A model generated the notes under the pieces. It saw only the letters and a program-made list of their open reading frames with translations, made no database searches and had not been told where the DNA came from. A stretch of 45,250 bases of DNA from Rhizaria sp. SCN 62-66 (taxonomy: Eukaryota): assembly GCA_001724265.1 (NCBI GenBank), contig MEDY01000072.1, positions 62,001-107,250 of the forward strand, read 5' to 3'. Of this stretch, positions 3,769 to 40,798 are shown piece by piece. A program made the position numbers and the translations under genes. Every line of letters starts with the position of its first letter. Positions within the stretch are counted from its first letter, which is position 1.

Positions 3769-4305
3769 ATGGCCTCCCTCCTACAAACCGCATTTGCTTT
3801 GTCATCTGGCCACGTACAGAAGTTTGCTCTGCTCGCGATCCTCGTCGCCCTGATCGGCATGATCTCCTTCACGACAGCCGAGACCGACTACGCGAAGTAC
3901 AACACGCGTGTCGGCGCTCAGTTCCTCGAGGCCAAGGCCGCCGAGGCGGGCGTCGTGGCCACCGGCACGGGCCTGCTCTACAAGGTCCTCACCAAGGGCT
4001 CCGGCACCAAGTTCCCCTCCAAGAGCGACACCGTCAAGGTCCACTACCGCGGCACGCTCATCAACGGCAAGGAGTTTGACTCGTCGTACAAGCGCAACTC
4101 GCCCGCCTCGTTCGGCGTGACGCAGGTCATCGCGGGCTGGACCGAGGCGCTCCAGCTCATGACTGTCGGCACCAAGCTCGAGCTCTACATCCCCTCCGAA
4201 CTCGGCTATGGCGCGCGCGGCGCCGGCCGCGACATCGGCCCCAACGCCACGCTCGTCTTCGAGGTCGAGCTGCTCGAGATCGTCGGCTCCAAGGACGACC
4301 TCTAA
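3769..4305 (+). CDS. FKBP-type peptidyl-prolyl isomerase, Mip/FklB-like, with N-terminal hydrophobic segment and KDDL C-terminus
   Basis: GLLYKVLTKGSG...VKVHYRGTLINGKEFDSSYKR...F.VTQVIAGWTEALQLM..G.K.ELYIPSELGYG.RG....IGPNATLVFEVELL is the canonical FKBP domain; stop TAA. Confidence 0.95.
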   Translation: MASLLQTAFALSSGHVQKFALLAILVALIGMISFTTAETDYAKYNTRVGAQFLEAKAAEAGVVATGTGLLYKVLTKGSGTKFPSKSDTVKVHYRGTLINGKEFDSSYKRNSPASFGVTQVIAGWTEALQLMTVGTKLELYIPSELGYGARGAGRDIGPNATLVFEVELLEIVGSKDDL

Positions 4306-23000: not shown

Positions 23001-24237
23001 TCGACGGCAGCTCGGCCTCCGCCGCCGCCGGGTCCAGCGCCTGCAGCAGCGCGTCGGGCAGCGCGCCGCCGCTCGCCTGCTGCGCGCCCGCATGCGCGCT
23101 CGCGTATGCGCTCGCGCCGACGGCTGAGCCATACGACGAGCTGGATGGCGTGCGCGACAGCGCGGTCAGCGTCGAGGCGTGCGCGGACTGCGCAAGCGCC
23201 TGCGCCTGCAGCTGGAACGCGGGCACTGAGAGGCGCGTCACGGCCGCGGGCGCGGACACGCTTGCGCTCGCAGCAGCCGCGGCGGCCGTAGCAGCGGAGC
23301 CGTTTGACGCGCTTGAGGGGGTGCGCGAGAAGGACGGGGGGCCGCCGCTGCTGCGGCCACTGGCGCGGCCGCTCGCGGCGGCGTTATTGACCGGCGTTGC
23401 CGCCACTGAAACTTCTAAGGGACGCGCGTCGAAGTGCCGTCCGTCTAGGAGGGGCCGAATGACTGTGGGCTCCTCGCGCTGCGTCTCAAGCATCGCTGAG
23501 AACCTGCGCGGGGTGACTGGCATCGCAGCTCCACTGCCGCCGGCAACAGCGCCAACAGTAGCACCAGCACCAGCGCCAGCGCCAGTGCCAGAGACAGAGA
23601 GAGAGAGAACACCGCCAGGTGCGGTCGCCGCGGACGCGGGGCTCGCTGAGAAGGTAAACGCGACGCTTGTGCCGCTGCGGGGACTGGCGCGCGCGCTGGA
23701 ACCGCCGCTGCCGCCGCCGGGGCCGCCAAGGGCGACGACAGAGGCGGGGAAGGAAGAGCGTCGCGCGGGCGAGACGGGCTCCGTCACGCGCACGGCGCCC
23801 GCGGCAAGGGGGTGCTCCTCCGTAGCCAGCGCGGCGAGCGCCTCGGGCACGCGCGCGCCCGCCGCGCCCGCGGGTGGCAGCTGCAGGGACGCCGAGGGCG
23901 AGGGCGACGCTGAGAAGGCGGAGACGGCCGCGAGCGTCGCCGGTGGCAGCAGCGGGTCGACGAGTGAATGGTACAGCTGCAGGGAGTCCTTGCGCGCGTG
24001 TGAGGGCCGCAGCGTGGGGCGCGCGGAGACGGCAGGCCTGGGGCCGGCCTCGGGGGAGCCTGAAGCGGCAGCCGCCGGAGCAGCAGCAGGAGCAGCAGCA
24101 GTTGAAGACGACGAGGACGTCGGAGCTGCAGCGGCTGGAGCGGAGGCCGCAGGGGGCAGCAGAGGGCCCAGCGTCAGCGGGGGCACTGACAAAGACGGCG
24201 GGGGAGGCGCGCGCCCGCTGCCGTGCAGAGAAGACAT
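8092..24237 (-). CDS. Giant (~5,381 aa) Ala/Ser/Gly/Pro-rich protein of unknown function, apparently intronless, with a split EF-hand-like core
   Basis: 16.1 kb open frame with consistent composition, bounded by AT-rich DNA. First ATG 24237 (MSSLHGSG); stop TGA. Globular-looking blocks at ~17518-18522 (QGD..., RFW, Y..LH.RI.RAL, DW..D, F...LFEISDLW, Y..FL). Confidence 0.8.
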   Translation of the reverse strand: MSSLHGSGRAPPPPSLSVPPLTLGPLLPPAASAPAAAAPTSSSSSTAAAPAAAPAAAASGSPEAGPRPAVSARPTLRPSHARKDSLQLYHSLVDPLLPPATLAAVSAFSASPSPSASLQLPPAGAAGARVPEALAALATEEHPLAAGAVRVTEPVSPARRSSFPASVVALGGPGGGSGGSSARASPRSGTSVAFTFSASPASAATAPGGVLSLSVSGTGAGAGAGATVGAVAGGSGAAMPVTPRRFSAMLETQREEPTVIRPLLDGRHFDARPLEVSVAATPVNNAAASGRASGRSSGGPPSFSRTPSSASNGSAATAAAAAASASVSAPAAVTRLSVPAFQLQAQALAQSAHASTLTALSRTPSSSSYGSAVGASAYASAHAGAQQASGGALPDALLQALDPAAAEAELPSSAHAGDITRRTRAFARTLRAHVAASMATLHSNIANNSNASSSNNDVIARALAQAKAAAGGALTPLQLQQLQFQLQQQHGSGSGSSSDADSAGDGATAQRGAGVKGGAARSGASLSSSSLTGGYVLGSALSKSERSAGRRAMRAAHSYAGVAPLIPTHSLSHSHARHNAPLVPANALPGPSEGNDTEADEDEAEDEGAEHSYFFFDGVARGGVRGGAGKGSRRASTAASALMLHNSAAAGTASAPTAAGLPSTGARHRPLRPRVPARALAAANAAAAESESGSKSATAAPSTPATAAAAATPVSAAAAAERVLATPALLSAALEALTARERAAAALDGDGAGVRGGVRGGPAGGSRARLTAQAALSAYNEDVEFASSGSDSQSQSASQSRAQSPAFALASVSASTSGGRVTNLRINTGAATGAETAAATPANVTTIASAAASGGVAPTPRTAAAQAAAFPAYRSDITTEDEAARAAQLSAGPRVGSRPRSLAASARASRRPSTLPASAAAAAAATAAAASAAAAAAAVPARPSVSTPGVLDDLDGQLLLPAAGFPDPRSPGGGVGDDYDGDAAYDGGDYDGGEAGDFLAPKADKSREAVIVARARDLTRRRSLSVAYDGFAESGAAAEVAAAVAAAAAAAHADAASAAGAFRGGESDSDSAFSSPRTSGRWGAGARRSSSRNDQSLAQGHGHGRGAAQALSPGAVAFLASTSPPPVHAALGATLRTLLPATAPAAAAVAAAAVAAAAVASAAPGAGSVTAKTGHHSALAHGSGAHARLVDTARWSSPWLLTGSSDAADAAAVAAATAAAPSGTATLTATQRLPGGLALAVPPSANTLTNNGNSTAILDDAVDISDDDAPDTIDALTDARLRRAKPVNEPVSPTSAAAAAVAAAAAAAAAAADSHSARYGRAAGVLRKLDFAVAAESDRPEHGLGALSSPGARARSRAARSQHGRSSVGDATGDSDADDSDSLSGSTGPDADAGAGSGAGAGAGARAAPALRDGAALVAARAAAFSDDPHPLPQAPAAAAAALSLTQSQSREQQPRQLAARSTMPVPEQDLEQATVQRRALARASLLSPAAMRTQQLRTLPPVAAAAAVRAAGGAVAAPPGSDDPDGDGRRGLSSDDYDDDDDHALDGKANAGDTKSNRSMGDDADGSRTLAKAMAKIALARERKAAIAAAAAAANTAAVPAASQSPPAESTMTAAEAAAAVAAEHAAAEAAQAAAHLAAARAREAQWQQAAKMALRGAEWVGQRARTRDAAERRRRRETQRRRALRATAALSGADGEAAALALSDDEDEDEAWAWAQSSAISTKVPPIDAAVAASAAAATEGAASATRSSRMNARGSLPPLSAEVPEGGDVSRVTWCLRAARRARARAREMFVHEELTAVVPLHAVGHRHGHSRGLSARRDTAPAAPGASGKAPRGAAVGAKASRKGKGSACAHPDVCKNSCRLHRPSTPAPASPAQPTEVAALAAAVAAEQAAANGGILTGGPVYAVQGDASFDSAEVVRLRRLFYQNPLLRRRLDRFWSFFFGPLPATTARRAASATQGAEEEDPEAEALRLLLRVHVDPTSGPTAAAAASTDSDDDDSEAKSNGGVNAKGSPAKTVSSIDADPAVTAAASAAAASAVSAARKDAAPSSRARLSFAQYSWLHARIARALYGRAWSPVLGAQLCLADWRRDLELDPSPGRRLLAARAKVAAVTTAAAAAAAAPAAAAVPSFASSLKRVESRGSTRAAAATATINARASGTQKFAALPLPAPTAAVPPATAKVAVTAGVTATMDDSAVSALSLSLEGFRRGLFEISDLWTATVDLTDYIVFLDTLLCKVAVAALPAVTVDAAGVTRVGGVPVPSLRDVVAAAQAEVAEENRRRALRGLPPLPRAPLPELDAVGAAGAGDGARGHGDDSDVDGSVTPRQPGESASSWAQRRRAARRRARRSRNGGAGSDSAGSDSDSGSNSFSDEDSDHDPLSDGVNSDGSPRKRGRGKGKGKGQDKNALVRKSSVDARYEAAARDLGLWGLDSDSDADIDAANAAAEAEAAADAKADAAEAAAVAAAATAGLSARGSGAAAMRAAQQRRQERVRAAAERAAERERRVMGITLQLRRLGLLSSEHVVEADADALELLETAIRDAEAASDVASENNGGGGAADAVAARRGGGLASLTADATLLAHTDAVGYVPRAKRGGGGDWISDDGLAATLGSVADAAASFTGSFVSETGSFGDGASGLQSPVVTEATPMGTPLLARQRTSTALSAGGATPTAGFGAGAGLLGSSSSLALLALPEGAGVAGLLRFFAVLRAALAQTAAWSQDRCVDAVDSLLALTSVLSGSGASTSGNGAGDAPRFGPLADPALLPEDLTRVERWRRLGEPDQDIEAADEIARAQQSAKQKGKGKGKTVHTGGLAGAGWAMDDAPSDSDTSSNSDSGSDSDSESNKNRPNSNSVRDDTTTSSSNNASLSANSSGGVSASSDDFAFTLRPAMASLAPHALAPLVLGAVAEADDEEDTADAHTAASRRPPSAAATPSGAVSGSLRPRSELAAASVAAARRGTPTLTTPRARARAYAAAVAALTPRSAAAALPRPPELADDRVGRVGKTEPKLLEDTEDEDQEDEEEEEDEEDNVARLLARPDTAPPLPRFLLTSIPRGRRAQDWAAWEAWATEADADDATALAMADDPARFIDFWREKEAAAAAAAAARAEARERRRAARRARREALARAAAGLLDIPALAGSLPEHSRLHLERLNRLRSSREPLAMTSVTPFVVDTASGHALLSPATGMDALVAAVNGGNTAHYHHHAADAHEHDTGSPSLRVTRPRASRVGSIDAMPSFVRAPSLSQLHPSLRLLATAAAAPGVGQGLGAEAVSKTLAAAPSAPVASASGSARALRVNPMLYPSLLLSVASLTKPVFAAVGPPGSSPAAAAMSTAITALAPAPVVAALRERLQQATTQAAAETHARGRGAVGHCVRVPPEVARLTTVLALTFCVWDARVTAAAARAFVTTADLESVPPRLVPGFAPPPITVITVGAAHAAATAGIEGKSAESKGAAPAGTASASAVASGVFAASLQSLLGCAEPLILESLRTVVSASAALHPVPPAVLAAAAAAAAAQAAAPSSPPTPLRRGLSVAASPVPGSVSLPSLPATNDVAAPATRHIARRLPFVLGSAGSEGDEAVDAANVATTLRAPEAVSMMHTTNSASAPAPPDQSNTSSPQAGTALSLNNQLGFPPLSITLTASSGSLLTPLQSQRQQPSASHTLQPYQQPHTRQSHTGMLATPALTPAHALALATPTAEAATPLGLSAAMTAAPTPAPSALLDEYEAARAAAARAAREQRKQSLAAQLVDRNERRGSSAMPMLTQHARAAARRESLARRDSNGALLGSYPSTSATAAATPTPAAEAVAAAAVQLQQQMQNGANPSWDAAAHQAAALRALLPSVLTVSHLDLLARDASSTSAAAELFDTPDALTLHALCGSDPLGPAALNAAAVLPQAWAVYVRLAAPLAAALHAIHLALRAREVAAANTPGGAALVVLASPSTSAPLSAALAHTVKVTVRAARRAVGLCAGVLTVMRVRAAENTALLARTAARLRFRALQRALFSAITRAFPAPRIPRRAAHASIAPSAAGSAAGSRIPSPSHTPALGTPGFGSPTPVFATAPGAGPLLLSTHGTSGAAPAAPGLSPQLLSAATPTLPAPDSAGFFAPPSGPDTVSPPSAAPSAPASPLPAPAAAQTPVAGSATPIPTVSSVSSQWSPLWTAARHRAAQQALLPLLAAHTANANAVANTLIAADALAAFSPLALLTKVIRAAALPLAPLPSSAAAARAMGPPARAPAVAERIEAFRRWAVTTLAPPAAAAVGSPAPRGRRAAGVLRTPLVGSGGAAAVAAAAAGRAKLEWTEESARRPQRLVVDRASRTAAGSAAAQLMPPGAESLARPPTPSAPRSPGLSSGEGPRGDTPRGSTHVDAESAFNSLYARQQQNRPRGFGGLGAFAEEEQPEPEHAANAEATAAATSEADSATGPVEGGVIATPATAASAGATASQALLKTANRSLMRVARAAEAAATGAGDSDAAVVESDLLYLAVGALPPPPPPARSLGSLEPTRARFAATAPAACARAAAAGAAAAAAEAAADALIVSTAFAARIEPPQRPTGTLSSSPYSVGASGAPGAGPGTGPGGAHLATVSFGARAGDGAGDSALKSWLGGNSAGGGSGLGGVLGLRHARPAHAAAAAIIAARATITAPSIAAVPRAPASATAALAASASPSRPGTAAGGYVSGDEGGRFVHSLRSDGARVLSPVPGAGATTAATMRESFAALHELAGPSAAIMAAAAAAAALTENNGSGRPSRRRGPPPAELPQLPAYSAQAPADTAAAAEAVEAESARSAAASATATKRDWSRVAITPRARGRFEHHFQGLGNLPRPDVYTALTGLPVPLPGGASASSAGTARSSTYSTAMASGRVMPSSAASGGARSAAVAASTGHIATERQRAPLAVAASLGAAFAPDSARATAALLTTHASAPTGASTARVVSNAAPGVAAARARALSFARAQTGRAAPRVFTRSAPTYDQEGAVNKTTDPESVAAAVTVMPASVGGSVTASPELPDGAESRPYTAGAAYGAYNAHVLPLSPRDADGNAQYFAPQNTYQTTSQMQSQSLLHAHAQDYGSGAAVGVGGYNVDDSARGWSSQSARSHALSQAHMPPQAQTHAAGHSRATASSLAQQQLPFRQPPPLLLFSTVPNAHAGSQDAVDWAPHAAAPAAPSMFLAMGSASARAATAAGPGARVRRGAGDARRLDLSLRHGRVLAPTTLGQAAALLTSGVAPVALAPGVNARAAAGSATAAADATAVALGGTALNARGVPLQQTAAGATIGGALGKGAPAAMVAAAARPAASRPERRQLVADASLRGSTAVAERLALARAAAERAGGVPTVLVVPDVVKQWLQQQLPPLQQQHPTVSPRATAAAEADTQQGDDEFM

Positions 24238-24651
24238 CGGCGCGGGGTCGAGGGCGCGGGAACGAGGGGAGGCGAACGCCAACGACTGACTGTGTGTGGT
24301 TGCCAAAAGAGAGAGAGTGTTTTGCTGCGAAAAGGGAATTACGGGAAAAATAAATACAGATAAGTAAGCTCAATGTATTAATATTGTACATATCCAAAAA
24401 CTGACTTCATTGACGACCAGAGCATCGAAATCAGCAAGGTTTTTTTACACCAGTAACGTCTCGCCTTGCTCTCTGCAAAGTTTGGCTGGGCCACCGTTCC
24501 TAAAAATTCCGACCTACCGCCGAGCGAGGCAAAGCGAGGGGGGTGCGTGACGGCCTGCTCGGGAATCGAGGTGGTTTGTGTTACCCGGACAGGAAGTAGG
24601 TGGAATTAACTTTTCGCCCACGTGTGTTTGGTTATCTAAAAACAGTTAGAC

Positions 24652-27083
24652 ATGACTGCTAAGAAGGCGACGGCCAAGGCCGGCACTATGCTCAAAAAGG
24701 GCCAGGTCGCTCGCGCTGCCCAGTTCGTGACTCGTAACAAGGTTCGTCCATCCGCAAATCGTCTCGTTCATCCCACCGCCGCCACTATAATCGCATTCAG
24801 CGCTCACGCTTACGTTTGTCACCCTTTCTTCTACAGGCTCTTGACAAGCTTCAGATCAGCCTCAAGGATTTCCGCCGGCTGTGTATCCTCAAGGGCATCT
24901 TCCCCCGTAACCCCCCGAAGATTAAGAGTACGTCTTCCTCCCTTCTTCGCGCCTCGATTTCATTCCCTTTTGCATCCGTTTTCGCTCTCGGCTTGCTTTG
25001 ACCACATAGCTCATCTCTTTTTGCTTCTATTACTGCTTCGTTTTTCCCCCTCTCCCTTTCCTCGGCGAGCACAGACAAGGCGCAGACGTACTACCATGAG
25101 AAGGACATCAAGTTCCTCTTGCACGAGCCGCTGCTGCAGAAGTTCCGCGACCTCAAGGTGTACCTCAAGAAGCGCACCCGCTTCGAGGGCCGCTACGAGC
25201 AGAATCTTGCGGACCGTCTTAAGGCGCCCGTAATGAACCTGAACCACCTGATCAAGGAGCGCTACCCGACCTTCGTCGACGCGCTGCGCGACATGGACGA
25301 CGCCTACTCGACGCTCTTCCTCTTCCGCTCCGTCAAGGTGCGTCTCGCGCGCGCCCTCACGGCCGAGCGCATCGCTAACCTGGACCGCCTGTGCGAGGAG
25401 TGGCTCTACACGTGCGCGCAGACCAAGATTCTGCGCAAGGCGTTCATCTCGGTCAAGGGCTACTACTTCCAGGCCTACTACAAGAACTCGCAGATCACGT
25501 GGCTGGTGCCGCACAAGGTCGTCCAGAACACCCCTGGCGACATTGACTACAACATCATGGCGACCTTCGTGCAGTTCTACGAGACGATGGCCAAGTTCGT
25601 CACGTTCAAGGTCTGCAAGGACGAGAGCGTGCCTTACCCGCCCCTGCTCGGCGACGACTTCGAGCGCGCCCAGGTCAGCGCCGTCTTCGGCGCCAGCAGC
25701 GCCAACACCGCCGCCGCCGCCGCCACCAAGGGCGGCAAGGCCGGCAAGGGCGCCGCTGTGACTGCCTCTGCGTCGACCGCGCAGGTCAAGGCCTCGTCCG
25801 CCGCGGCCGCTGCGGCCGCGGCCGAGGACGCCGCCGACGCCGCTGAGGCCGGGGCGCAGGCCAAGTCCGCGGCGAGCGCCGACGGCGACACGACTGCGTT
25901 CCACGCGCTGGACCCGAACGCGCTGCCGCTGATGGACGCCAACGCGGCCAAGCAGGCCGTGCTCTTCGCCGACATGGTCGTTCTGGTCGCGCGCGAGGTG
26001 CCCTTCGAGCCCATCGCCTTCGTCATCCGCTCTGGCGGCGGCGTGGCCCTGGGTGAGTCGTTCCTCACGGTCGAGCAGGCCAAGAGCACCAAGTTCACGC
26101 ACCAAGTCGTGGACCGCCACGCGCTGTTGTCGTACTTGCCCTCGCGCACGTACGTTCAGCCGCAGTGGGTCGTCGACTCGTTCAACGAGCGCCACCTGCT
26201 GCCTACCGAGCCCTACGCCGCGGGCGCCAAGCTGCCGCCGCACCTGTCGCCGTTCGTCAACGACGAGCGCGTGGGCTACGTGCCCGAGCAGCGCAACGTG
26301 CTGCGCAAGTGGGTCGGTCTGGCGCCGATCCGCGAGGGCGCGCAGGTGAGCCTGAAGCGCGAGCCCACTGCCGAGGAGGCGGCCGAGGCGCAGGACCAGG
26401 AGGACGAGGCCGAGTACCGCAAGGGCATTCAGGCCGAGGTCCGCGCCGCGCGCAACGAGTCGCGGCTCATCGACGCCGCGGAGAAGAAGCAGCAGGCCGC
26501 CAAGGATCGCAAGAACGCCAAGAAGGAGCTGGCCAAGCCCGCCGACGCCGCCACCGCCACCAAGGCCAAGGCCCAGCAGGCCAAGCAGCAGGCCCAGGAC
26601 GACGACGACGACGACGACGAGGAGGAAGAGGAGGACGGCGAGGAGTTCGAGTTCCAGGCCTCCGACATGGAGTCGGGCGACGAGGGCGCGGGCTCTGACG
26701 ACGACGTCGAGATCGACGGCGACGTCGACGGCGTGGACAACGACGACGATGACGACTCCGAGGACGAGCTCGATGACGAGGAGGCCGAGACCACCGCCGC
26801 GGGCGCCAACGACGACGAGGACGATGACGACGAGGACGACGAGGACGGCACCGAGCACGCTAAGGCCCCGCGCCCCAACACCTTCAACCAGCGCAACTCT
26901 GAGCGTGAGCTGGCCAAGATGATGCTCAAGCGCCGCCACTCGTACATCATCAACGAGAAGGACCGCAAGAAGAAGCTCTCAGCGCAGAAGGCGCAAGTTC
27001 TGCAGGTCAAGCGCGACGCGCACGCCGCGGGCGTCGAGAACCCCGACCTGCCCAAGGTCCACCGCAAGCGCTTCCGCAAGTGA
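24652..27083 (+). CDS. PES1: Pescadillo (60S biogenesis; BRCT domain); exons 24652-24741, 24837-24927, 25075-27083, 729 aa
   Basis: [41 protein letters not shown]...[60 protein letters not shown]...THQVVDR...[27 protein letters not shown]; stop TGA. Confidence 0.97.
24742..24836 (+). other. Spliceosomal intron 1 of PES1 (95 nt)
   Basis: GTTCGT...CTACAG; removal gives the conserved TRNK|ALDKLQ. Confidence 0.9.
24928..25074 (+). other. Spliceosomal intron 2 of PES1 (147 nt)
   Basis: GTACGT...pyrimidine tract...CACAG; phase-1 join gives PKIK-N-KAQTYYH. Confidence 0.85.
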
Positions 27084-27497
27084 AGTGCGAGTGAAGCGAA
27101 GTGTGCATTGAGCGCGAAACGTGACACAAAGCGTCAAGAACAAATATGTGACTGTATGTCGCTGTTGTGCTGTGGATGTTGACTGATTGCTTTCAGTTGT
27201 TGTTGCTTTTTCATGACACTGCATTGGAAGTGCCAGTGTAGTGTTTGTTAGTTTAAGTCAATCAACTCTAGTTCAAAGTAAGTCTACTGCTTTGCAAGAA
27301 GCGACGCTTATCTTCTTTATATATGATCAAGTCTTTTTTCATTTACATCGTTCGTTGTATAAAACAATACAAACAAGAAAACTAATAACAAGCTGTATTA
27401 TATCATCTTGATCTGAGACTATGTAATGTTGAAAAAAGCTATCTACTCGGTGTTTTCAAAAATGTACAAAGTTGTTTGTGTGAGCTTGATATCACTC

Positions 27498-29991
27498 TCA
27501 CTTCTTCTTGCTGCCCCCGCTGGTTCTGTCTCCGCGGAGGATCGCGGTGGCGAGCTTGTACTGTGACTGGAACTTACGCCGCTGGTCGTCAACGGTGCGC
27601 CGCCGCGCCGCCTGCTGCTGCTCTCCGGACCGCACGGCGCGCAGCGTGTCGTACTCCTGCGCAAAACATGACAAAACACAATAAAACAAAACAAAATGTT
27701 AGCGTAACAAAAGGAATAGCTTGGTATTGAATATGAATTCAAGAATCTACAGATTTGCGTGTCACATAACAGCTTATGAATACGCACCCTACTTCGTGCG
27801 CCGGCAAGGAACTTGGCAAGCTTCTCCTGTCCCTTCGTCGCATCAAGTAGCAACGCGCCGTACTGCGTACTGCCGCCGGCCCCGCTGCCGCCGCCGCTGC
27901 CACCGCTGCCGCGGTTGGCGAAGCCGTGATTGGCGTAGCCCGCAGGCAGGCCGCCCGCGGTACCGTTGCCAATATCGTTGTTAAAGTCACTGTCGTCGTC
28001 GCCGTCGTCGTAAGCCGCGTTGTCATCATACGAAGGTTGCTGAGACTGCTGCTGCTGCTAGCTACGCTGCTGCTCCTGCGCCATCTCCTGCTCTTTGCGC
28101 GCGGCAGCCTGTACTGCGAGCGCCTGCGCCGATAGCGGCGGCGGCGCGCGGGGTGGCACCGGCAGACTCCCGCTCTGCGACTGCGAATGTGTCTGATGTG
28201 AGGGTGCCTGTGTAGACTGTGCGCGCGATTGCGAGCTGGGGTAGACCTGGTCATCGACGTCATCGACACCACCGTGAGGGTGACTGTGAGCAGAGTGACC
28301 GTGGGCAGAGTGACCGTGAGCGTGGTCGGCGGCGGACTGGGCCAGAGCGCGGCGACGCACTTCAGGACTCTTGTCGCGTTGCTGAGAGCGCTGCGACTGC
28401 TGCTGCGGCTCGCAGCCGCGGTCACGCTGGTCACGATCACGGTCACCGTCACGGCGCTCGCGGCCTCGAGGCTGCGACGTCTGAGACTGAGACTGAGACT
28501 GCGCATGCGGGGGAGGTGAGGCGCTGAGGCCCCTCAGGTCCGCCCCCGTCACGACCACCGGAACTGGCACCGACGCGGCCACCGCCGGGGCAGAGCTGGA
28601 GGCTGTGGCAGCAGTCGCCGAAGGAGCACTCTCATTTGCAAGCTCTTTCTGCTTCTCCTGGTGACGGCTGGCCTGCTGACGACCGGACTGAGGCCGCTCC
28701 CGGCGCTGCTCATGGTCACCCTGCTGCTCGCGGTCGTCCCGCGCTTGCGCGTGACTGTGACTGTGCTCCCGACTGCCACTGCCACTGCCACTGCCACTGC
28801 CACTGCCACTGCCACTGTGGCTGCGGCTGCGATGAGCGCCATCCGAGTCGCCATCGCTTTCGCTGTCGGGGATGTACACCGCAGAGGCCAGCAGCGCGGC
28901 CTCTTGCTTCGTCACGCCACCGGTAGCGCTTGCGCTGCGGTCGATAAAGCCAGCAGCGCGGCTGGCGGAGCCGGGGCGAGTGCTGTCTGCAGTCGCGGGC
29001 CGGCTGCCTGCGCCCCGGGCCATAGGGCTACGCTGAGCGTCGGTGGCGCCATTCATATCGCCCGCAGCGCCACTGCCAGCGCCAGTGCCAGGGCCGGTGC
29101 CGGTGTTGATGCGCGCCACGGCAGAGGACGGGCGACTGCGACCAGCGCCTGCGGTGGTGCCCGCGTTAGCGCCAGTACTCATCGCGGCCGACGGCGAGTT
29201 CGCAGTCGGCTGGCCGCCGGTGCTGCCGCTGTGGAAGAAGCCGCCGTTGCGGGCACTGGGAGACGGAATCGAGAGCGATGCAAACAGCTTTGCGTTGCCC
29301 GATCCCGCGCCCACCGCAGGTACCGCGCTGCTGTGTGCATTTGCGTGATTGGACCCGGCTTGCGCCGCATGAGAGTTTGCGCTCGCGACCGAGTTGCCGT
29401 GCGTCGAGTCAGCCGTGGCGGAGTCGAGGCTCTGCGCGCGCGGGTACTGCGGGCGCGCGCCGGGGGCCGCCGACCGCGGCCGCGCGCGCCCCCGCTGGCC
29501 GCGCTGCACGAACCGGCCCCCGCCAAAGCCCTGGCCCTGGCCCTGGCCGCCGCCGTGGCCGTGCGCAGGACTGCCGGGCCGGCGCACCGCGGGCGCGCGG
29601 GAGCCTGCTCCGCCGCTGCTGCGCGAGCTCAACGTAAACGCGGCGACGGCGGCGGCGGACGGAGAGGCGCCGTTACCTGCCAGCGCAGCCGCAAGGGCCG
29701 CCGAAAGCCAGTCACCGTTGCCTTTGCCGTTGCCGTTAGCGCCGCGACTAGAGCCGCTCGTGTCGGTGTTACCGTTCGCGGCGCCGTTACCGTTCGAAGT
29801 CGGGCCAAGTCCGTAGCGCGCGTGCATCGCGGCCACTTTACCGTCGTTGCTCGCGCCGTTGCTGCTGTTGTTGCTGCTCGCGTGGCCGGCGGCTGCTGAG
29901 GGCGACGGCGCGGGGCCGCGGACGGGCCCTGCGGATTGCGGCCGGCCGAACCGGGGCCGCGGCGACGAGTGCGGCTGCTGGGCCTGCTGCG

Positions 29992-30083
<92 letters not shown>

Positions 30084-33000
30084 GTGGCTGGTGGCGGCGT
30101 GCTGTCGGTTGAGGTAGTCCGCAAAGTAAGCGAACTGGCGCTGCAGACCGGCGTTGCCCGTGGCCACGGACTGCGGCGACTGCGCTGGCCGACGCGCCGC
30201 TGACTGCGGGCGCAGCGACGCAGATTGGGGCCGCTGCGCTGCTGATTGCGGTCTCATAGCAGCCGACTGCGGCCGCGGCTGCTGCTGAGCGTGTGAGTCG
30301 AAAGCCTGCTGTGCGTAGGGCGTTGCAGACTGGGGGCGCGAGCTTGCACGCGGCGACGCGCGCGGCGATGGCGACGAGACGCGCGCGGCGCTGCCGGGAC
30401 CGAAAAACTCAAACTGTGCACCGCCGCCAGCAGCGTTGTGACCGCCGTTGTTATTGTTGCGAGGAGAAGGTCGGCCGGCGGCGCGTGCTGCCGCGAGCGC
30501 TGCGGCGGCAGCAGCGGCGTACGCGTCGGGCGCTGTGCTGCGCATCACATCGGCGTACGACGACATGCCAAGAGACTGCTGCTGTTGTTGCTGCTGTTGG
30601 GAGCGCGGCGTGGTGCTGAACAGGCTTTTGCCGCCCGTGGCCGCAGGGGCGAGGTGGTCGGCCTGCGCGGGCCTGCGCGCACCGGGGATGAGACTCGGAC
30701 CCGCAGCGCTGGCCCCAGAGCCAGCGCCAGCGCCCGGGCCAGCGCCAGGGCCAGGGACTGACTTGGTGTCCGGGAAGTGGCTCGCCTCCTGCTGCAGAGT
30801 CACGGGTACTGGCATGGGTACCGGCGAGAGCGCAGGGCTGGCGGTGCTGGGGCTGCTGGGCGGCGTCGTGCGCAGCAGCGACACGCGCAGCGCCGCGATG
30901 CCGCCGCCGAAGCCGCCGCTGAAGCCGGGGTGAGCGCCGCCGTTGGCACTCGCAGCATTGCCGTTGGTGCTAAGACCGAGGCCCGCGACGCCACCGAGGC
31001 CGGGGGACGCGGAGCCCGTCGCCGAGCGCAGCGCGGAGCCCGAAGCGGAGGCCGCCGAGAACGGACGGGGACTGTCGCCGCCGCTGTTGCTGCCCCCGGC
31101 AACGGCGCCGCTCTGACCGGCGGCGGCGCGAGGACTGCCGTTGCCGCCCATCGAGCCGCCGGCGCCGAAGAAGGCCGCGGGGCCGACGCGGGGGCTGGCG
31201 CTAAAGCCGGCACGCGGGCTGGGGGTCGGGCACGGGCTACCAGCGCCACTATGGGTGGCGTTGTGGCCGCCGCCACTGTAGCCCGTGAAGCCCGACGCCG
31301 AGGGGCGACTGCTGCCGTGACCGCTGCTGTGGCCGCTGCCGCTGCGCAGGCCGAGGGCAATCGCGGCGGTCGCTGCGGCGGCGGCAGAGACCGAGGCCGT
31401 GGCCGTGGCCGAGGTCGTCGCGTGCGCCGTCGACGCCGTGACCGGCCGCACCGCCGCCGAGCCCGGTCGTGCTGAGCCCGGACGGTCCAGGCCAGGGCCG
31501 GAGCGCGGGCTGGGCAGCACGGTGGCGGCCGCAGCGCGGGGACTGTGTCCCGGGCCGAGGCGGGACGAGGCGGTGCCGGGACGCTGCGAGGCCGAACCCG
31601 GGCGCAGCAGCGGGCTGCGGCCGGAGTCGGAGCCGGGGCCAGAGCCGGGGCCAGAGCCGGGGCGGGAGTTGGCCCCGCTGCCGTAGCCGGTGCTACCGCG
31701 CTCGTTGTCCGAGTCCGAGTCAGAGAGGGTGTACACCGCGTCGCCGTACGCACCCCCACTGCCTCCGGTGCAGCCACCGCGCGCACTGGCGGCGCGCGCC
31801 GCAGCGAGCGTGGCGGCGAGCGCGGCGGCCTCGCGCTGCAGGCGGCGCTCGTGATCACGCTCGCGCTGCTGCTGCTGCTGGGCCTGCTCCAGCTGCAGCT
31901 GGCGCTGGCGCTCATGCTCCTGCTCTTGCTCCTGCTCCTGCTCTTGCTGCCGCTGGCGCTCGTGCTGCTGCTGCCGCTGCGGGTCTTGCTGCTGCTTTGC
32001 CTGCTGCTGCTGCTGCTGCGGCTGCTGCGCATTGCTACTGCTGGCGTTGCTGATGCTGCGAGCGCGTACGCGTGTGACAACCCAGTCCATGACCTCGTCC
32101 ACGGTCGTGCGGAGCGCCGCCGCCTCCGCCGCGCTCAGCCGCTCTCTCTCGCCCGCACCGACACCGGCAGCGGCACCAGCAGCACCGCCCGAGGCGCCAG
32201 AACCCGCGGAGTGGGCCGAGCTCCCTGCACCCGCTGTGCCACTGCTGCCGCTGCTGCTGTTAATGCGAGCGCGCGCGAGGGCCCAAACCGCGCCGGGCTC
32301 GAGCTCGAAGGGCGCAGCGACGTCGAGCGGTGCGAGCCCCGCGTCGTACTCGCGGCGGCGCGCGGGGTCCTTGAGCGCGGCGTGGGCGGCCACCAGCGCG
32401 TGAAAGGCGCGCTCCGCCCAGGGGTGCGCGAGCTTGTCGGGGTGGACGCGCAGCGCCAGCTTGCGGTACCGCGCTTCGATCTCGGCCTCGGACACGAGCG
32501 GGAGCAGCGACGACACCAACGACGCCGCCACCGCGGACTGCGGCACACCACCGCCGGCGCCGAAGCCGCCGTTGGAGTTAGCGCTGGCGCCGGAAGAGCA
32601 GGAGCGGAAGGCGCGAAAGCGCGAGGCTGAGGCGGCGGCAGCGGCCTAGCGCGCGGCGGCCGCAGCGGCGCGACGCTGCTGAGCCGCGCTGGCGCTGTCG
32701 CTGCCACCGGAGTGATGCGCAGCCTTGGCGGGGCCGCCGTCGGAGCCAGCGCCGAAGAGCGGCCGCGTCCCGGGCATGCGCGCCGCTGCCGCCGCGCCCG
32801 CCGTCGCCGCGGCCTCGGCGTCGGCCTCAGCGGCCTCTGCCGCGGCCTCCGCAGCAGCGGCCGCGGCGAGGCGCGTGTGGAGCGTGGCGCAGAGCGAATG
32901 AAGGAAGGTGAAGAGCAGGCGCGTGTCACCGTAGCCGAGCGCAGCATAGTGGTGGCGCGAGAAAAGCAGCGCGGCAGCTACCACAACCGGCGGGGCCGTC

Positions 33001-33746
33001 AGTAGCTCTTGCGACGACAGGTCCGACACCGTGACGGCGCCGCCCAGCGCATTGATGTTGCTGCCACCGCTATTACTCTTGCAATTGCTGTTGTTGTTGC
33101 GAGTGGCGCTGGGGTTCGTGCCGGTGCCGGTGCTGCTGCTGCCGCCGCTAGCGTTGACGCTAGGGCGCGGGGGATTGTAGGGCTTGTTGATGTGGGGCCG
33201 CGGGCGCGGGGGGCCAGACGCCGAGGCGTAACTAGGCTGATGCTGCTGATGCTGCTGCTGCTGCACCTGCTGCTGCTGATGCTGTGACTGGTTTTGCTGC
33301 ATATTCGCACCGCCAAACGCAAACCCGTACCCGGCGTTGCCGTAACTGCCCGTGGGCGTGCTACCGCTCGAGCCGCCCTGGCTAGCGCTGCTGCCGTGTC
33401 CGTGTGTATAGTAGAGGTCCGCGGTGTGCGCCCCGACAGAGGGCGCGACCGAGGCCGCCGAGGCGCGCTGCGGCGGCCGCGTGGGCACGTGGTGCGCCGG
33501 CAGCGCGGGCGCCGGCGCGCGTGGGATGTGGAACGTGCGCGCGTCGTCGCCCGGCGCGAATGCAGACGCAGGCGCGGCGGCTGTGGGCGCGGCTGCTGCA
33601 GGGGCCGAGCTGTGCTGCTGCTGGCGGCGGGCCGCGTTGGGCGACTTGATCATGTAGACTGCATCAGGCGCTGCTGCTGGCGGCGCTGGTGATGTTATGC
33701 CCTGTGCTGGTGGCCGCGGGCGTCGCGACGGAGTTCGTGAGTCCAT
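27498..33746 (-). CDS. Large (~2,040 aa) DnaJ/J-domain protein with low-complexity tail; contains two in-frame TAG codons (32646-48, 28058-60), one frame break at a (CAG)30 tract and an intron (27657-27787)
   Basis: ORF-track pieces 32646..33806 and 29838..32546 share a frame, separated only by a TAG. 28058..30124 continues in frame past a TAG into 27443..27853. J-domain: HHYAALGY...VSEAEIEARYRKLALRVHPDKLAHPWAERAFHALVAAHAALKDPARRREYD. Last exon EYDTLRAVR...GGSKKK-TGA. No AT-rich intergenic gap between the pieces. Confidence 0.75.
27657..27787 (-). other. Spliceosomal intron (131 nt) in the J-domain gene
   Basis: Minus strand GTGCGT...GCTAAC (branch-like)...GCGCAG, AT-rich; join ARSR|EYDTLR is in frame. 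Confidence 0.8.
28058..28060 (-). other. In-frame TAG codon, probably read as Gln
   Basis: Context EQQRS-TAG-QQQQSQQPSYDDNAAYDDGDDD; the frame stays open to the intron donor at 27787. Confidence 0.7.
28772..28816. repeat. (GCCACT)n hexamer repeat encoding (GS)n on the minus strand
   Basis: Tandem gccact units; translated SGSGSGSGSGSGSGS. Confidence 0.9.
29993..30082. repeat. Perfect (CTG)30 / (CAG)30 microsatellite (poly-Gln), site of reading-frame break
   Basis: Directly counted 90 nt uninterrupted repeat. Confidence 0.95.
32646..32648 (-). other. In-frame TAG codon inside the J-domain insertion
   Basis: QQRRAAAAAAR-TAG-AAAAASASRFRAF...GGVPQSAV...HPDK; 33 sense codons link it in frame to ORF 29838..32546. 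Confidence 0.7.
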
Positions 33747-34228
33747 GTTGCGCGCGCGAGCGCGGGTTGGGAACAAGCAAGAGAAGCTCGCCGCTCGAAT
33801 GCACACGCTACTTTAAAAGTACCTGAGGCGACTGCGCTAGTCGAGACACCTTGAGTTTTAATAACAAAATATAAGTTTTATGTCTTGTTAGATGTGATAT
33901 CTTTGGTAATATTGTAATGACGATCAAATGATAGCGCACTGACCTGTTTTCGAAGCACGATTGGTAACGTCTCGCTCAACGATCAAAAAAATCCGCTCAC
34001 TGCTTCGGGACGAAGCCCGAACTTCCGCAAGCCACTCCCAGCCAGTATATCTGTTGATGGAGTTAAAACAAGTTTTTTCTGTATTAAATACTATGTTTAT
34101 TTTTAAATCTATTATTATATTTCTTATAAACCTCATATATCCACCGATATCCTTCGTTTCTTCCGCAGCGCTTTCCAAGTCCCAACCCAATCGAGACCCA
34201 CACACGCAGCCCAGCACCCGCCCACACA

Positions 34229-34963
34229 ATGTCATCATCTTCTCAGCAGCCGGCGCCCGCCGCGCTGCCCGCGGCGCGCCTGTTCGCGACGTACGGCACG
34301 ATCCGCGATGACGACGACTCGGGCGCGGAGTGGACGCGCGCCTTTCTCCGCGGGCTGGTGCCGCCCGCGCGCACCGGCGCCGTCCGCGGCTTCGCCATGT
34401 GGCGCAATGCGCGCGACAACTGGCCATGGGCCGTCCCTGTTGACAGCGCCACCGACGGCGACACATCCGTGATCACGGTGCGCGCGCTGAACTTCGGCGA
34501 CAGCGCCGCGGCGTTCGCGGCGAAGCTGGCCGAGGCGGACGAGATCGAAGGGTACCGGCCCGACGGCAGCGGACAGTACGACCGCGTCGTTGTCGACATC
34601 CGCCTCGCGCCCTGTGCGGATGGCGGACACGCGCAGACTGGCCATGCGCGGACGGGCGACTGCGAGCATAGCAGGGCTGCCAAGAGTGACTGCGAGACTG
34701 ACAAGGCCGACTGTGAGACCGTCAAGGGCGTGTTTTACTACCTCCGCGCGCTGCCCGCCCCCGCAGCTCACTCGAACACGGCGAGCATCACTGACACCGC
34801 GACTGCTGCGGATAGCACCACGACCGCTGCCAATGCGACGTTGGCCTCCCGCGGCCGCTTCGTGGACGCCACGGGGCTGGTCTGGAAGCGCGACCGCGGC
34901 GGCGACTGGCTGCGGCGCGACCGGGACCCGACGTGGTTCACTTACGACGACGATGACGACTAA
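34229..34963 (+). CDS. Gamma-glutamylcyclotransferase / AIG2-like family protein
   Basis: LFATYGTIR (cf. xFxYGTL), G.VRGFAMW...WPWAV, LAEADEIEGY, YDRVVVDI, GVFYY and GGDWL follow the GGCT/AIG2 motif order, with low-complexity insertions; stop TAA. Confidence 0.75.
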   Translation: MSSSSQQPAPAALPAARLFATYGTIRDDDDSGAEWTRAFLRGLVPPARTGAVRGFAMWRNARDNWPWAVPVDSATDGDTSVITVRALNFGDSAAAFAAKLAEADEIEGYRPDGSGQYDRVVVDIRLAPCADGGHAQTGHARTGDCEHSRAAKSDCETDKADCETVKGVFYYLRALPAPAAHSNTASITDTATAADSTTTAANATLASRGRFVDATGLVWKRDRGGDWLRRDRDPTWFTYDDDDD

Positions 34964-35024
34964 GTAAGCTGTCACAGAGGGACTGCGATGGAGAGTGCAG
35001 CGGAGTGACTTTGCGAGAGCGCAC

Positions 35025-37406
35025 TCAGATGTCGTTGATTGCGCGCACAGCCTTCGCCTCATCACCGTCGTCGTCGTCGTCGTGATCAGTCATAGCGCGA
35101 ATGTTGATCTTGCTCTTGCGCTGAGCCGTCCCCCACTCTTGCTCTCGATCTTGCGCTTCAAGCTCCTGGAGCTCCTGCGCGAGCTGCAGCGCCCGCCAGG
35201 CCCTGACGCGCGGGAACGAGGGGAAGCGCCGCGCGAATCGCTCCTCCGGCGGCGCGTCGTCCTCCGCGGGCGCCAGCGAGGCCACCCCGCACACCCACGG
35301 GTCCGCCGTCCGGGCCGCCCGCGGCGCGCGCGCCTGCTTACCGGCCGCCGCCTTGCCGGCCGCCGCCTTGCCCGTCTGCGTCCCCCGTGGCGCCGTTTTC
35401 CGGCCCGTCTTGGCCGCCGCAGCGGCTGCGGCCTGTGCGGCGGCCTGTGCGGCTGCGGCGGCGGCGTGCGCTTTGACGTGCGCGTCGTCTGCGGCCACGG
35501 CGACGTCGGCGCGGGAGAGCGCGCGCCACGACACGCCCACGCGCAGGTCCACCGTCACCGGCGCTGGCGCTGGGACAGGCGCTAGCGCGGGCGCTGGTGC
35601 AAGGTTGGGCACTGTGCGAGTGTCAGCGCCAGTGTCAGTGGCCTGCGCGCCGTGAGTGCAGTAGTCGGCGGGGGTGTTGCGCGAGCGGAGAATGGAGCGG
35701 CCAGCGTCGGTGTGGCAGTCGTTCACCCTGACAGCGCTCCCGTGATTCGCGTAAGGATTTTTCGCGGCTGCGTTCGTGTTGTTGTTGTTGTTGACTAGGA
35801 TAGAGCTCGAGCTGGCGCTTTCGCTGTGCACGCGCGTCATCCCCTGCTGCGACAGCGACGCTGACTGTGACACCGATCGTGACACCGACTGTGACGACGC
35901 AGCCAGTGATGACACTGCCAAAGACGGCACTGCGCCAACACGGGCGGCAGCGCGGGAACGGACACTCGCGCTCGCGCTCGCATTCGCACCAGCGCCAGCG
36001 CCGGTGCCAGAGCCTGAGTGAGAGCCCATAGACTGCGACTATGACTGCGCTGTCCGTGACCGTGACCGGGCCTGCGCCCTCGCCTGAGCCCTCGCCTGCG
36101 CGCGCGCCGCCGCGGCCGTGGCCGCCGCGGGAGGCAGCGCAAGTTGCTCCATCTCGCCCACAGGCTCCGCGGGCGTGGCCACGGGCGACGACACTGTCGC
36201 AGTTGCAGTCTCTATTGCTGAGGCCGAGGCTGGGGCTGGGGCGGGCGACTGCGGCGTGGCGGGTGCCGCAGTGACCGGCGGGGTGGGGGCCGCGCCCGAG
36301 AGCAGCGCGCGCACAGAGTGCAGTGAGCGCCGCGGCAGCAGCGGCGGCGTCAGCAGCAGGGCCGAGTCCTGCTCGACTTGCTCACGGCCGCAGGCACTCT
36401 CACAGTCACTGATGTCCACATGATCGCCACCGCAGCCACCGACGCAGACGCAGACGCTTTTGGCCGTCGCCGCTGTCGCCTTTCGCTTGCCTGCTGTGCT
36501 TTTCCCTTTCGACGCGGCCGCTGCTGTTGCTGCTGAGGTGTTGGCGGTGGCGGCGGTGCGAGCGCGGCGCGGCGTCAGCGGCGGGGTTAGCAGGCAGCCG
36601 CTGTGATCGCGCGCGCTCTTTGCTGTCCTAGTCGCAGTCCCACTCGCTGTCGCAGTCGCTGTCCCAGTCCTCCCAGTGGTCGCCGAAGTAGCTGTCGCAG
36701 TCGCGCTGGCGCTCGCAGCCGTGGGCGCGGCGCGCGCGCGCTTGGCGCGGTGGTGCGGCGCCTGGCGCGGCGCCGACACGAGTGCGTGGTTGCTTTCGCC
36801 GATCGCGGACAGAAACGCCGCACGCCGCGTGTGCGGCGGCTCCTGGGCCGCCAGGCGCCGCAGCTCCTCCGCCTCCGCGGCCTCGGCCGCGGCGGCCGCG
36901 GCCGCGGCGGCGTCGAGCTCGCGCTGGCGCTTACGCGGGACGAGCGCGGTGCAAAAGCGCAGCGCACCGAGGTTCAGGGCGCCCATGCGGACCGGGGACG
37001 CGTCGCGGCCCACGGCGCGGGACTCGGCCCGCAGCAGGCCCGGCGCGGCGACGGGCGGCGCCGACGCCAGCGCGGTGCGCGTGTGCGCGGCCGCAAGCGC
37101 GAGGCGGACCTGCGATGCCGTGCGCGTGGGCTTTTGCGCAGACTGCTGCTGTTGAAGCTGAAGCTGCTCTTGTTGCTGGTGTTGTTGGTACGAAGACAGA
37201 GAGAGGGAAAGGGAGAGTAACTGCGTGCGGTGCGGGACTGGCGAGAGACGCGCGCGGAGAGGGCCAGTTTCTGCGCGCGCGTTCTCTTTGTCATCAGTGT
37301 TAGCCGGTGAGACAGGGGCTGCGGTCCGTGCGGCGACGATGGAAGGCTTGGGTTTCTCGCCGATGCCCTGTGGCGAGGTGAAGACGCTGATGAGGCGGCT
37401 CAGCAT
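35025..37406 (-). CDS. Low-complexity protein of unknown function, 793 codons, with one in-frame TAG (36039-41)
   Basis: ORF 36039..37406 ends in TAG and ORF 35025..36029 begins 3 codons later in the same frame (RTAQS-TAG-SQSMGSHSG). No intergenic sequence between them; final stop TGA. Confidence 0.65.
36039..36041 (-). other. In-frame TAG codon, probably read as Gln
   Basis: Reading Q gives AQSQSQSM, the (QS)n pattern seen elsewhere in this window (SQSQSASQS, TQSQS, AQSQSQSQT). Confidence 0.7.
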
Positions 37407-38101: not shown

Positions 38102-38981
38102 TTAGACGCCGGAGCCGCGGTCGTCGGAGAACCACTTCTGGACGTGCTGCTGCGAGAAGAGCGAGAGTCCGATGAGGAGCACGGTGGAGAACATGACGAG
38201 CCACTGCAGCCGGGAGCTGGTAGAGCGCACCATAGCAAAGTGCTGGTGTTCCTTGGTGCGCATGGAGCGCTGCGACTTCTCGATCGCGTCCAGGTCCTCC
38301 GAGAGCTTGATGACCGAGTCGACCATGGGGCCCAGGTGCTCGAGCTTGGCCAGCTCGGCCTTGTTCGCGCGCTTCGACCGGACCTCGAATGAGACAACCT
38401 TGGCAGTCCACCGCGACATCGAGTTATCAAAGCAGAACTTGTAGGCGCCCGCCGTGGTGGCCTTGAAGTTGACGCGGCCCTCAGCCTCGTTCATGTCCTC
38501 GTCCTACAGTGAAACAACGCAAATGAAGACAAAGATAAAAATCCATGGTTGATATGTTAAGATATATGTGAGATATAGTGTTAACTTACGTCGTGTCGTA
38601 TCAAAAGATGATAGCCAGAGACACATATTATCCCCGCAAAAAGTGCATATGGGTCAACATGATAGGAGAGAGCTTCAACTGCCATAAGCAAGAGTAACAG
38701 AAGCAGTGACAACAGTGACATACGGGCTTGTTGAAGAACGCCATGCGCTCCTGCATCAGGTTCCTGTTGGGATCATAGAGCTGGAACTTGATATCGAGCA
38801 GCCCGCCGCGGGTGACCTCGAAGCTCATGTCGAACTGGGCGCCCGCGGCGAGGTCCTCGTTGAAGCACTGCACGGCCTTGGGCTCGACCTGAAACGTCAG
38901 GTACGACGCCGCGCCGAGCCCCGCCATCGCGGACAACGCCGCCAGGGCCAGCGACAACGCGTACAGGGCGGCCAGACGCAT
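38102..38981 (-). CDS. p24/emp24/gp25L (TMED) cargo receptor; exons 38981-38724 and 38503-38102, 219 aa
   Basis: Signal peptide, GOLD domain (LTFQVEPKAVQCFNE...FEVTRGGLLDIKFQLYDPN...FKATTAGAYKFCFDNSMSRWTAKVVSF), coiled coil, TM and QKWF tail; stop TAA. Confidence 0.95.
38504..38723 (-). other. Spliceosomal intron (220 nt) in p24 gene
   Basis: Minus strand GTATGT...CTGTAG; join FNKP|DEDMNE is in frame. Confidence 0.9.
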
Positions 38982-39887: not shown

Positions 39888-40798
39888 GCAAGGTCCGCGT
39901 CTCCAACCCAGAGAAGCAGCCTTCGGTGTACTCGCAGCTTGCTCCGCTCTGCCGCTTGCAGCACAGCAAGTCCAACTCCACCAGCTCCGTCTTCAGCGTC
40001 ACCAACATCACCTGCCCCAAGATCATCGAGTACGTGTTCAAACTTAACATTACTCAATATATCTCTAAAAACATTAGTATATATCTTTTTCGCCCACTTT
40101 CAACTCACAAATATATATTTACTGCGCTATATATTCCTTCACTATTCAGACTCGTTTCGTCGGTCTCAACGATGCTGCACTGCCAGATGATGCGCGACTG
40201 CGAGGCGGCCGAGAAGGGCCGCGGCCACATCGCGTGCTTCGCCGAGGAGAAGTACACGGGCCGCGTCAACACCGAGATCCCCACGGTGAACGTGATCTAC
40301 TCGTTCCTCAAGAACGTGTTCGAGGTGGGCCAGTTCCACCCCGAGTGCTGCGTCATCTCGCTCGTCTACGTCAACCGCCTCATCGGCGTCACCGGCGTCC
40401 CGCTTTCGCCCTCCAACTGGAAGCCCATCACCATCGCCGCGCTCGTTGTTGCGCAGAAGGTCTGGGACGACACGCCGCTCATTAATGCAGACTTTTCGAT
40501 TCTGTACCCGCCGTTGACCGTGCGCGACATTAACTACCTGGAACGCCAGCTGCTCGCACTGCTCGACTTCAAGCTCACGGTCTCGCCCTCGCTCTACGCG
40601 CAGTACTTCTTCGAGCTGCGGTCCATCTGCGAGGACGCGGGCTCCTACGCCGCGAGCCCCAGCCAGGGCATCAACCGGCACAGCGAGGCGCGCTCGCACT
40701 ACTCGGAGCAGTACCAGAAGCGCAAGAAGGAGTACAAGAAGATCACCATGCTGCCCGACACGCTGCTCGTGCACACGCGCAGGCAGGTCATCAACTAA
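39767..40798 (+). CDS. Cyclin Y-like protein; exons 39767-40029 and 40150-40798, 303 aa
   Basis: SNSTSS N-terminal motif, IYSFLKNVF...ECCVISLVYVNRLI...NWKPI...AQKVWDD...N.DF...INYLERQLL.LLDFKLTVSPSLYAQYFFELR is typical of cyclin Y/CCNY; stop TAA. Confidence 0.9.
40030..40149 (+). other. Spliceosomal intron (120 nt, 3n, stop-free) in cyclin Y-like gene
   Basis: GTACGT...TTCAG, very AT-rich; join gives KIIE-LVSSV. Confidence 0.85.

Follow-up and report, generated by a model that had tools for sequence, protein, structure and literature searches.

We analyzed a 45,250-nucleotide (nt) stretch of contig MEDY01000072.1 from Rhizaria sp. SCN 62-66 (the whole stretch is called the window here), in which three TAG codons interrupt two adjacent genes on the minus strand, a J-domain protein gene (27498-33746) and a low-complexity gene that we call gene 3 (35025-37406). 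The three TAGs are real in the DNA and lie inside coding sequence, and none of the 12 gene ends that could be called uses TAG. We are fairly confident that the ribosome passes these codons, probably inserting Gln, with translation and residue both deduced from the DNA. The reading that we favor, though tentatively, is that UAG serves the organism as a sense codon, most likely for Gln; its validity across the genome and any tRNA or release-factor mechanism behind it are what we infer from this one stretch.

The plus strand reads CTA at all three sites, which is TAG on the minus strand. Site 1 (28058-28060) and site 2 (32646-32648) fall in the J-domain protein gene and site 3 (36039-36041) in gene 3. 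Two of them stand in Gln contexts, as a preliminary description of this DNA had noted. Site 1 lies in CAG CAG CGT AGC TAG CAG CAG CAG CAG (QQRS*QQQQSQQ), and site 3 (CAG TCA TAG TCG CAG TCT) is the middle unit of (CAG TCN)3. Both look like former CAG codons, which speaks to the ancestry of the codon and not to its decoding. Site 2 has the context GCG CGC TAG GCC GCT. We trained a codon-usage log-odds model on the confident genes of the window and scanned the frames around each TAG. The frame of the TAG itself scored best both upstream and downstream at each site, over hundreds of codons. The coding score peaked across site 1 at 0.57-0.61 bits per codon, and the open reading frame (ORF) downstream of site 3 (35025-36038, 337 codons) scored +76 bits in the same frame. 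The GC content of the 150 nt downstream of sites 1, 2 and 3 is 0.61, 0.75 and 0.67, respectively. These results confirm the original observation that GC-rich coding sequence continues in frame beyond each TAG. Past the 12 true terminators, the GC content over 150 nt is 0.65 at one end, which abuts a convergent gene, and 0.28-0.57 at the other 11. Curated coding segments totaling 12,174 codons contain three in-frame TAGs and no in-frame TAA or TGA.

We checked the TAGs in Logan contigs assembled from other sequencing runs, which we label X2, X3 and X4 (DNA) and X5 (polyA RNA). The X2 and X3 contigs are identical and may represent one data set; X4 comes from a different study (2025). Contigs from X2/X3 cover site 1 (26646-28137), site 2 (31919-34901) and site 3 (34921-36762), and X4 contigs cover site 1 (27073-28215) and site 3 (35414-36143), all without a difference at the TAGs. 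DNA contigs from runs of three studies carry the TAGs unchanged. At site 2 we also found a 342-nt contig from the polyA metatranscriptome (X5 record 29, 32402-32743) that matches the genome colinearly, without a single difference or gap. The preliminary description had named splicing or editing across a TAG as an observation that would overturn its proposal, and this contig speaks against both at site 2. Given the matching contigs and the colinear X5 contig, sequencing error at the TAGs is unlikely, as are RNA editing and splicing at site 2. Both TAG-bearing genes have RNA-library contigs on them. None of those among the matches listed falls on sites 1 or 3, an absence that carries no weight.

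ORFs, the frame scan and a Pfam DnaJ match define the J-domain protein gene, which has ~2,040 codons and runs from an ATG at 33746 to a TGA at 27498-27500. Besides sites 1 and 2, it contains a single frame break and a single 3' intron. The J domain itself (32343-32495, minus strand) covers DnaJ profile positions 12-63 and has an intact HPD motif. It begins ~50 codons downstream of the TAG at 32646. There is no ATG between this TAG and the domain, and the first ATG past the TAG, at 32090, lies beyond it. A conserved motif, PPVVVAAALLFSRHHYAALGYGDTRLLFTF (32904-32993, minus strand), lies upstream of the TAG. We searched for homologs by a full HMMER scan of 1.84 billion representative proteins and recovered one ortholog-like protein, P0122 (longer cluster member P0271). 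The top match of the representative search, P0121, was set aside as a multi-J-domain repeat protein that is not an ortholog. In P0122/P0271, the motif, with its HYAALG core, and the J domain reside within a single ORF. A single BLASTP high-scoring segment pair to P0122 runs across the position of the TAG at 32646 (E=2e-22), and the upstream ORF alone matches P0271 with 14/30 identical residues (E=4e-5). Because the motif and the J domain share one ORF in the relative and the alignment crosses the TAG, we judge from this comparison that the TAG at 32646 falls inside a stretch that a relative encodes as a single protein.

Two observations concern the architecture of this domain. The DnaJ profile covers positions 12-63 in the window and 11-63 in P0271 (window 32343-32993, minus strand; P0271 residues 144-317), and in both proteins the conserved HYAALG motif stands ~90-135 residues upstream of the J domain and resembles the J-domain start DYYxxLG. 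The J domain may be split by a long disordered insert. The 56-residue upstream piece alone has no Pfam match, so reading it as helix I stays a conjecture.

Downstream of the TAG at 28058 (site 1) are 90 codons, a canonical 131-nt intron (27657-27787, minus strand; GTGCGT...GCGCAG, phase 0, pyrimidine- and AT-rich) and an in-phase terminal exon (27498-27656, minus strand) of 52 codons (EYDTLRAV...GGSKKK) that ends in TGA and has a 3' flank with a GC content of 0.31. These 142 codons contain no ATG. Toward its C-terminus the gene product is not significantly similar to P0122; the homolog is therefore uninformative about site 1 and about whether both parts form a single gene. A word search with the J region returned no match, probably because low-complexity words swamped it. 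Gene 3 has 793 low-complexity codons, from an ATG at 37406 to a TGA at 35025-35027. It has no Pfam family, and its word search, probably swamped in the same way, found no homolog. An in-frame ATG lies 9 nt beyond site 3 (36029, minus strand). Another ATG (29827, in another frame) lies 10 nt past the TAA at 29838 that closes an out-of-phase ORF of the J-domain protein gene. The placement of these two ATGs shortly after stops is probably a coincidence.

What discriminates most strongly in favor of a variant code is that no gene end uses TAG. Six of the 12 callable gene ends use TAA and six use TGA, which bears out the earlier count. TAA ends the genes for FKBP (4303-4305), Mss4 (4691-4693), OST48 (7394-7396), p24 (38102-38104) and a cyclin (40796-40798), and the gene at 34130 (34961-34963). 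TGA ends a gene at 1905-1907, the giant ORF (8092-8094), PES1 (27081-27083), the J-domain protein gene, gene 3 and the gene at 41839 (43324-43326). Family profiles or homolog C-termini back five of the 12 ends. Two of the original gene labels fared less well: TEX9 has no Pfam match, and GGCT has a match to Pfam GGACT at only E=0.017. As a control, we examined PES1 terminators in 80 unrelated environmental eukaryote loci, of which 74 had a C-terminal match and 73 a stop. The 73 comprised 29 TAA, 27 TAG (37%) and 17 TGA; the 13 with GC content at third codon positions (GC3) of at least 0.7 and an extension of at most 15 codons comprised seven TAG, five TAA and one TGA. This control covers one gene from related taxa and is a rough guide only. 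The chance of observing no TAG among 12 ends is P=0.004 at a TAG share of 37% and P=0.07 at a share of 20%.

Other features of the gene ends can be recorded here. TAA is used at four of the five homology-anchored ends, and the low-complexity genes end in TGA. Of the 12 true terminators, 11 have a purine directly after the stop (G in nine cases); the in-frame TAGs are followed by C, G and T. FKBP ends in KDDL (4291-4305, plus strand), and OST48 ends in KKAD (7382-7396, plus strand) after a transmembrane stretch. These C-termini resemble endoplasmic reticulum retention and retrieval signals and support both gene ends.

Several results weigh against the reading of UAG as a sense codon. TAG accounts for 3 of 514 Gln-type codons (0.6%), compared to 454 CAG and 57 CAA. 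Judging from the ratio of TTG to CTG (65:432), ~68 TAGs (~13%) would be expected of a neutral CAG synonym, which amounts to a ~20-fold deficit. All three TAGs fall within two neighboring genes whose share of the Gln-type codons is 197 of 514 (P ~0.056). There are none in the giant ORF (5,425 codons stop to stop; 5,381 from the first ATG) or in any conserved gene, and none in the 9,372 curated codons outside the TAG-bearing genes, as the preliminary description had stated for the first two. Within the window, UAG does not appear as a regular sense codon across many genes. That description had also cautioned that no TAG lies opposite a conserved Gln, and its caution was justified: site 2 alone can be aligned, and it falls in a non-conserved linker that does not indicate the inserted residue. 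Finding only TAG among the in-frame stops is weak evidence because 72% of the one-step nonsense routes available from the codon usage of the window yield TAG; the chance that all three would be TAG is P=0.37. The terminator sample consists of 12 ends in 45 kb, and the P values do not incorporate the organism's own stop-codon shares. The RNA support is one RNA-library contig, which is compatible with pre-mRNA or carried-over DNA. Scans of the window revealed no tRNA gene and no Rfam match. Searches for further contigs from the organism or from close relatives were unproductive. The PES1 search of metagenome contigs found no close relative, a three-sequence PES1 alignment run against metagenome contigs returned 80 loci with a best identity of 40% and none close, genome contigs searched with the PES1 alignment and 4,999 residues of the giant ORF gave no match, and neither did viral contigs. 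The window contains no eRF1 gene. The variant code first proposed thus stands in part: the TAGs are real, they lie inside coding sequence and they end none of 12 genes. Their scarcity, their confinement to two genes and the readthrough alternative considered below count against it.

The J-domain protein gene also contains a +1 frame break that is consistent with gene decay, weighs against our favored reading, and was absent from the preliminary description. The window's longest perfect tandem repeat, a (CAG)33 tract (29984-30083, minus strand), coincides with the break. The gene's two long ORFs lie in different frames and the switch between them is sharp, with frame scores of +9.2 versus -26.4 bits before the tract and +8.2 versus -20.8 bits after it. 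The tract reads as GCA (Ala) in the frame of its upstream flank and as CAG (Gln) in that of its downstream flank. An RPQSA motif is present on both sides. We looked for an intron that would repair the frame; the sole GT donor of the right phase for acceptors in the repeat, GTGGCC at 30167, was rejected because it is unlike the known donors and would excise coding-like sequence. Slippage at a trinucleotide repeat leaves the frame unchanged. The break could stem from a frameshift that is real, from a chimeric join or from two CAG tracts of different phase that were collapsed during assembly. Such a collapse, which a de Bruijn assembler can produce, explains the break as well as a frameshift does. 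Because the break sits on the longest repeat, where Logan contigs also end, and because collapse can shift the frame, we treat it as nearly neutral between hypotheses.

Two explanations retain the standard code with all three TAGs as nonsense codons. In one, CAG>TAG mutations in Gln-rich, low-complexity genes are buffered by readthrough: a near-cognate tRNA-Gln(CUG) would read a few percent of the codons, enough to supply full-length protein, and UAG would end other genes in the normal way. We regard this as doubtful, though it has a precedent. A 2026 preprint on standard-code yeast (PMC13192750) reports that premature UAG or UAA codons in Gln-rich low-complexity domains still allow 2-8% of the protein to be made at full length, Gln being inserted, that readthrough becomes more efficient as the mRNA's Gln content increases (7-20% Q), and that the growth of a snf5-Q225X strain is wild-type-like; this is one preprint on one species. 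The TAG-bearing genes are low in complexity and among the most Gln-rich parts of the window, with Gln-type codons at 60/735 (8.2%), 88/1,221 (7.2%) and 43/794 (5.4%) in their parts, plus the (CAG)33 tract, versus 159/5,425 in the giant ORF. At two of the three sites the TAG stands in place of a CAG in a Gln repeat; four CAG codons come right after site 1, where the base at +4 is C. Buffered readthrough would need no change of code to account for how rare TAG is, for its clustering and Gln ancestry, and for the frames that stay intact downstream. It leaves the lack of TAG at 12 gene ends unexplained (P 0.004-0.07). The local contexts also fit imperfectly, since no Gln codon flanks site 2 (CGC TAG GCC), the only CAG adjoining site 1 is at +1 and site 3 has Gln at -2 and +2, such that no site of the three carries a full Q-stop-Q motif. 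Moreover, this explanation needs three separate fixations, each lowering protein output more than 10-fold and all seen in runs dated 2015-2025, which is much to ask of two genes.

In the other standard-code explanation, which we consider unlikely, the genes are young pseudogenes or encode truncated proteins, and the downstream sequence still looks coding because the mutations are recent. The J-domain protein gene does carry three lesions (two TAGs and the +1 frame break), the lesions occur only in two adjacent genes that have the weakest codon scores (0.09-0.23 bits per codon, versus 0.33-0.76 elsewhere), and TAG is both the most accessible nonsense codon, at 72% of one-step routes, and exactly as rare in frame as a stop codon should be. 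Unitary pseudogenes and premature-stop alleles likewise present in-frame stops, and possibly a frameshift, in recognizable genes. The two genes differ from such pseudogenes in having one kind of lesion (TAG), a sole frame break that sits exactly on the repeat where contigs break, a preserved coding signature, intact splice sites, terminal exon and HPD motif, and RNA-library contigs on both. Besides the three TAGs and the (CAG)33 break, ~2,800 codons show no frameshift, TAA or TGA, unlike the mixed lesions of neutral decay. Pseudogenization would also leave the absence of TAG from 12 gene ends to chance. Annotation error, in which the TAGs lie within unrecognized introns or are true ends followed by separate genes, seems to us very improbable. 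A donor-like GTGCGT at 28360, 303 nt upstream of the TAG at 28058, makes an in-frame intron ending in ...GCTAG formally possible, and an ATG lies 9 nt past the TAG at 36039. The 303-nt candidate, however, is GC-rich and scores as coding, whereas the five introns identified in the window are 100-170 nt long and AT- or pyrimidine-rich. Donor-like hexamers occur in coding sequence at 0.37 per kb, the level expected by chance, and none lies within 400 nt upstream of sites 2 or 3. The X5 contig is colinear across site 2, no ATG follows site 1 or lies between site 2 and the J domain, and genes elsewhere in the window are set apart by long, AT-rich spacers, all of which argue against separate genes or hidden introns.

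We compared the proposed code to known systems. The fornicate Iotanema spirale reads UAG as Gln; its report (PMC5304391) gives 104 UAA, 15 UGA and no UAG terminators, 126 genes with 204 in-frame UAGs between them (~8% of Gln codons) and Gln at 22 of 28 hyperconserved UAG positions. UAG is also read as Gln in two phyllopharyngean ciliates, Hartmannula sinica and Trochilia petrani, as reported in PMC11687900. The window resembles these three organisms in that only UAG occurs in frame, UAA and UGA end genes and Gln is plausible at the UAGs. It differs from Iotanema in having three UAGs in ~12,000 codons (0.6% of Gln-type codons), confined to two genes and with none at conserved positions; the lineage is also different. 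UAG is read as Leu in the rhizarian exLh (Sainouroidea), where 384 in-frame UAGs are spread over 71 genes and fall mostly on conserved Leu, and in three phyllopharyngean ciliates from TARA. As in exLh, UAG alone would be reassigned while UAA and UGA serve as stops, possibly within the same supergroup if the weak affinity of PES1 to Rhizaria holds. The contexts here are Gln repeats and not Leu, unlike exLh, although Leu at site 2 is possible. Finally, the TAG-bearing genes resemble the Gln-rich domains of yeast Snf5, Cyc8 and Whi3 in placing a CAG-derived UAG in a Gln-rich, low-complexity protein. In those yeast cases, near-cognate tRNA-Gln inserts Gln and function is kept despite the stop. The yeast alleles are laboratory alleles with 2-8% readthrough, in contrast to three fixed natural sites here, one of which has no Gln neighbors, and the lack of TAG terminators nearby.

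Under the sense-codon reading, UAG would have lost, or largely lost, its role as a terminator in this GC-rich eukaryote. A tRNA-Gln, either with a CUA anticodon or by efficient near-cognate reading, would decode it, and UAA and UGA would continue to terminate translation. The result would be a code of the Iotanema type (NCBI table 15) in which UAG is used very sparingly. A bolder version, which we offer as a speculation with the odds against it, is that the window shows stop-codon capture in nature while it is still at an early stage, in a very GC-rich lineage of wastewater reactors that had not been sampled before. Here UAG would have left the set of terminators and yet be ~20-fold under-used as a Gln codon. 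It would have appeared first in Gln-rich, weakly constrained proteins pre-adapted by near-cognate tRNA-Gln reading, with Gln-context readthrough and full reassignment as successive steps.

If real, the change would join the known codes with UAG as Gln and UAA and UGA as stops, and the sparing use of the codon would be its unusual part. Only a few eukaryote lineages are known to have reassigned UAG alone while keeping UAA as a stop, and each was discovered with the codon already common. Our search of the main texts of full-text articles turned up no such code for a GC-rich non-ciliate or for a wastewater eukaryote. An organism in which UAG is non-terminating yet nearly absent from coding sequence would show an intermediate state and offer a direct test of the "ambiguous intermediate" route, in which near-cognate Gln reading in Gln-rich mRNAs comes first. 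In practice, gene callers that use the standard code would split or truncate this organism's genes when metagenomes are annotated. The case is ordinary, except as a natural example of yeast-type Gln-context readthrough, if the TAGs prove to be buffered nonsense codons or to mark young pseudogenes.

The window as a whole is gene-dense and eukaryote-like, with a GC content of 0.70-0.77 in coding sequence and 0.45-0.55 in spacers and a GC3 of ~0.8-0.9. Runs from bioreactors, wastewater and activated sludge, belonging to several studies dated 2015-2025, contain its 31-mers. An exact look-up of six window ORFs in a protein collection returned no entry. A word search with the PES1 protein identified the metagenomic relatives P0002 (67%) and P0003 (63%), and the nearest named homologs, from Plasmodiophora and Bigelowiella, are only 38% identical. 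By this weak affinity the organism is only possibly rhizarian. The largest feature of the window is the giant ORF (8092-24369, minus strand), a low-complexity sequence rich in Ala, Ser and Gly, neither half of which matches a Pfam family. It serves as an internal control for the TAG-bearing genes, with no in-frame TAG, TAA or TGA, no frame break and Gln at 2.9% of its codons. The five introns identified in the window have donors of the form GT[GAT]CGT. The OST48 intron (6714-6880) and the 3' intron of the J-domain protein gene share an identical donor hexamer. The 5' region of PES1 (24650-25110, plus strand) contains two short introns with the donors GTTCGT and GTACGT; the second is pyrimidine-rich and not AT-rich, so composition alone lacks the power to mark every intron. 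In the gene at 41839-43326 (plus strand), run X4 carries a 9-nt in-frame insertion at 41954 relative to the window, a strain-level length polymorphism that preserves the reading frame.

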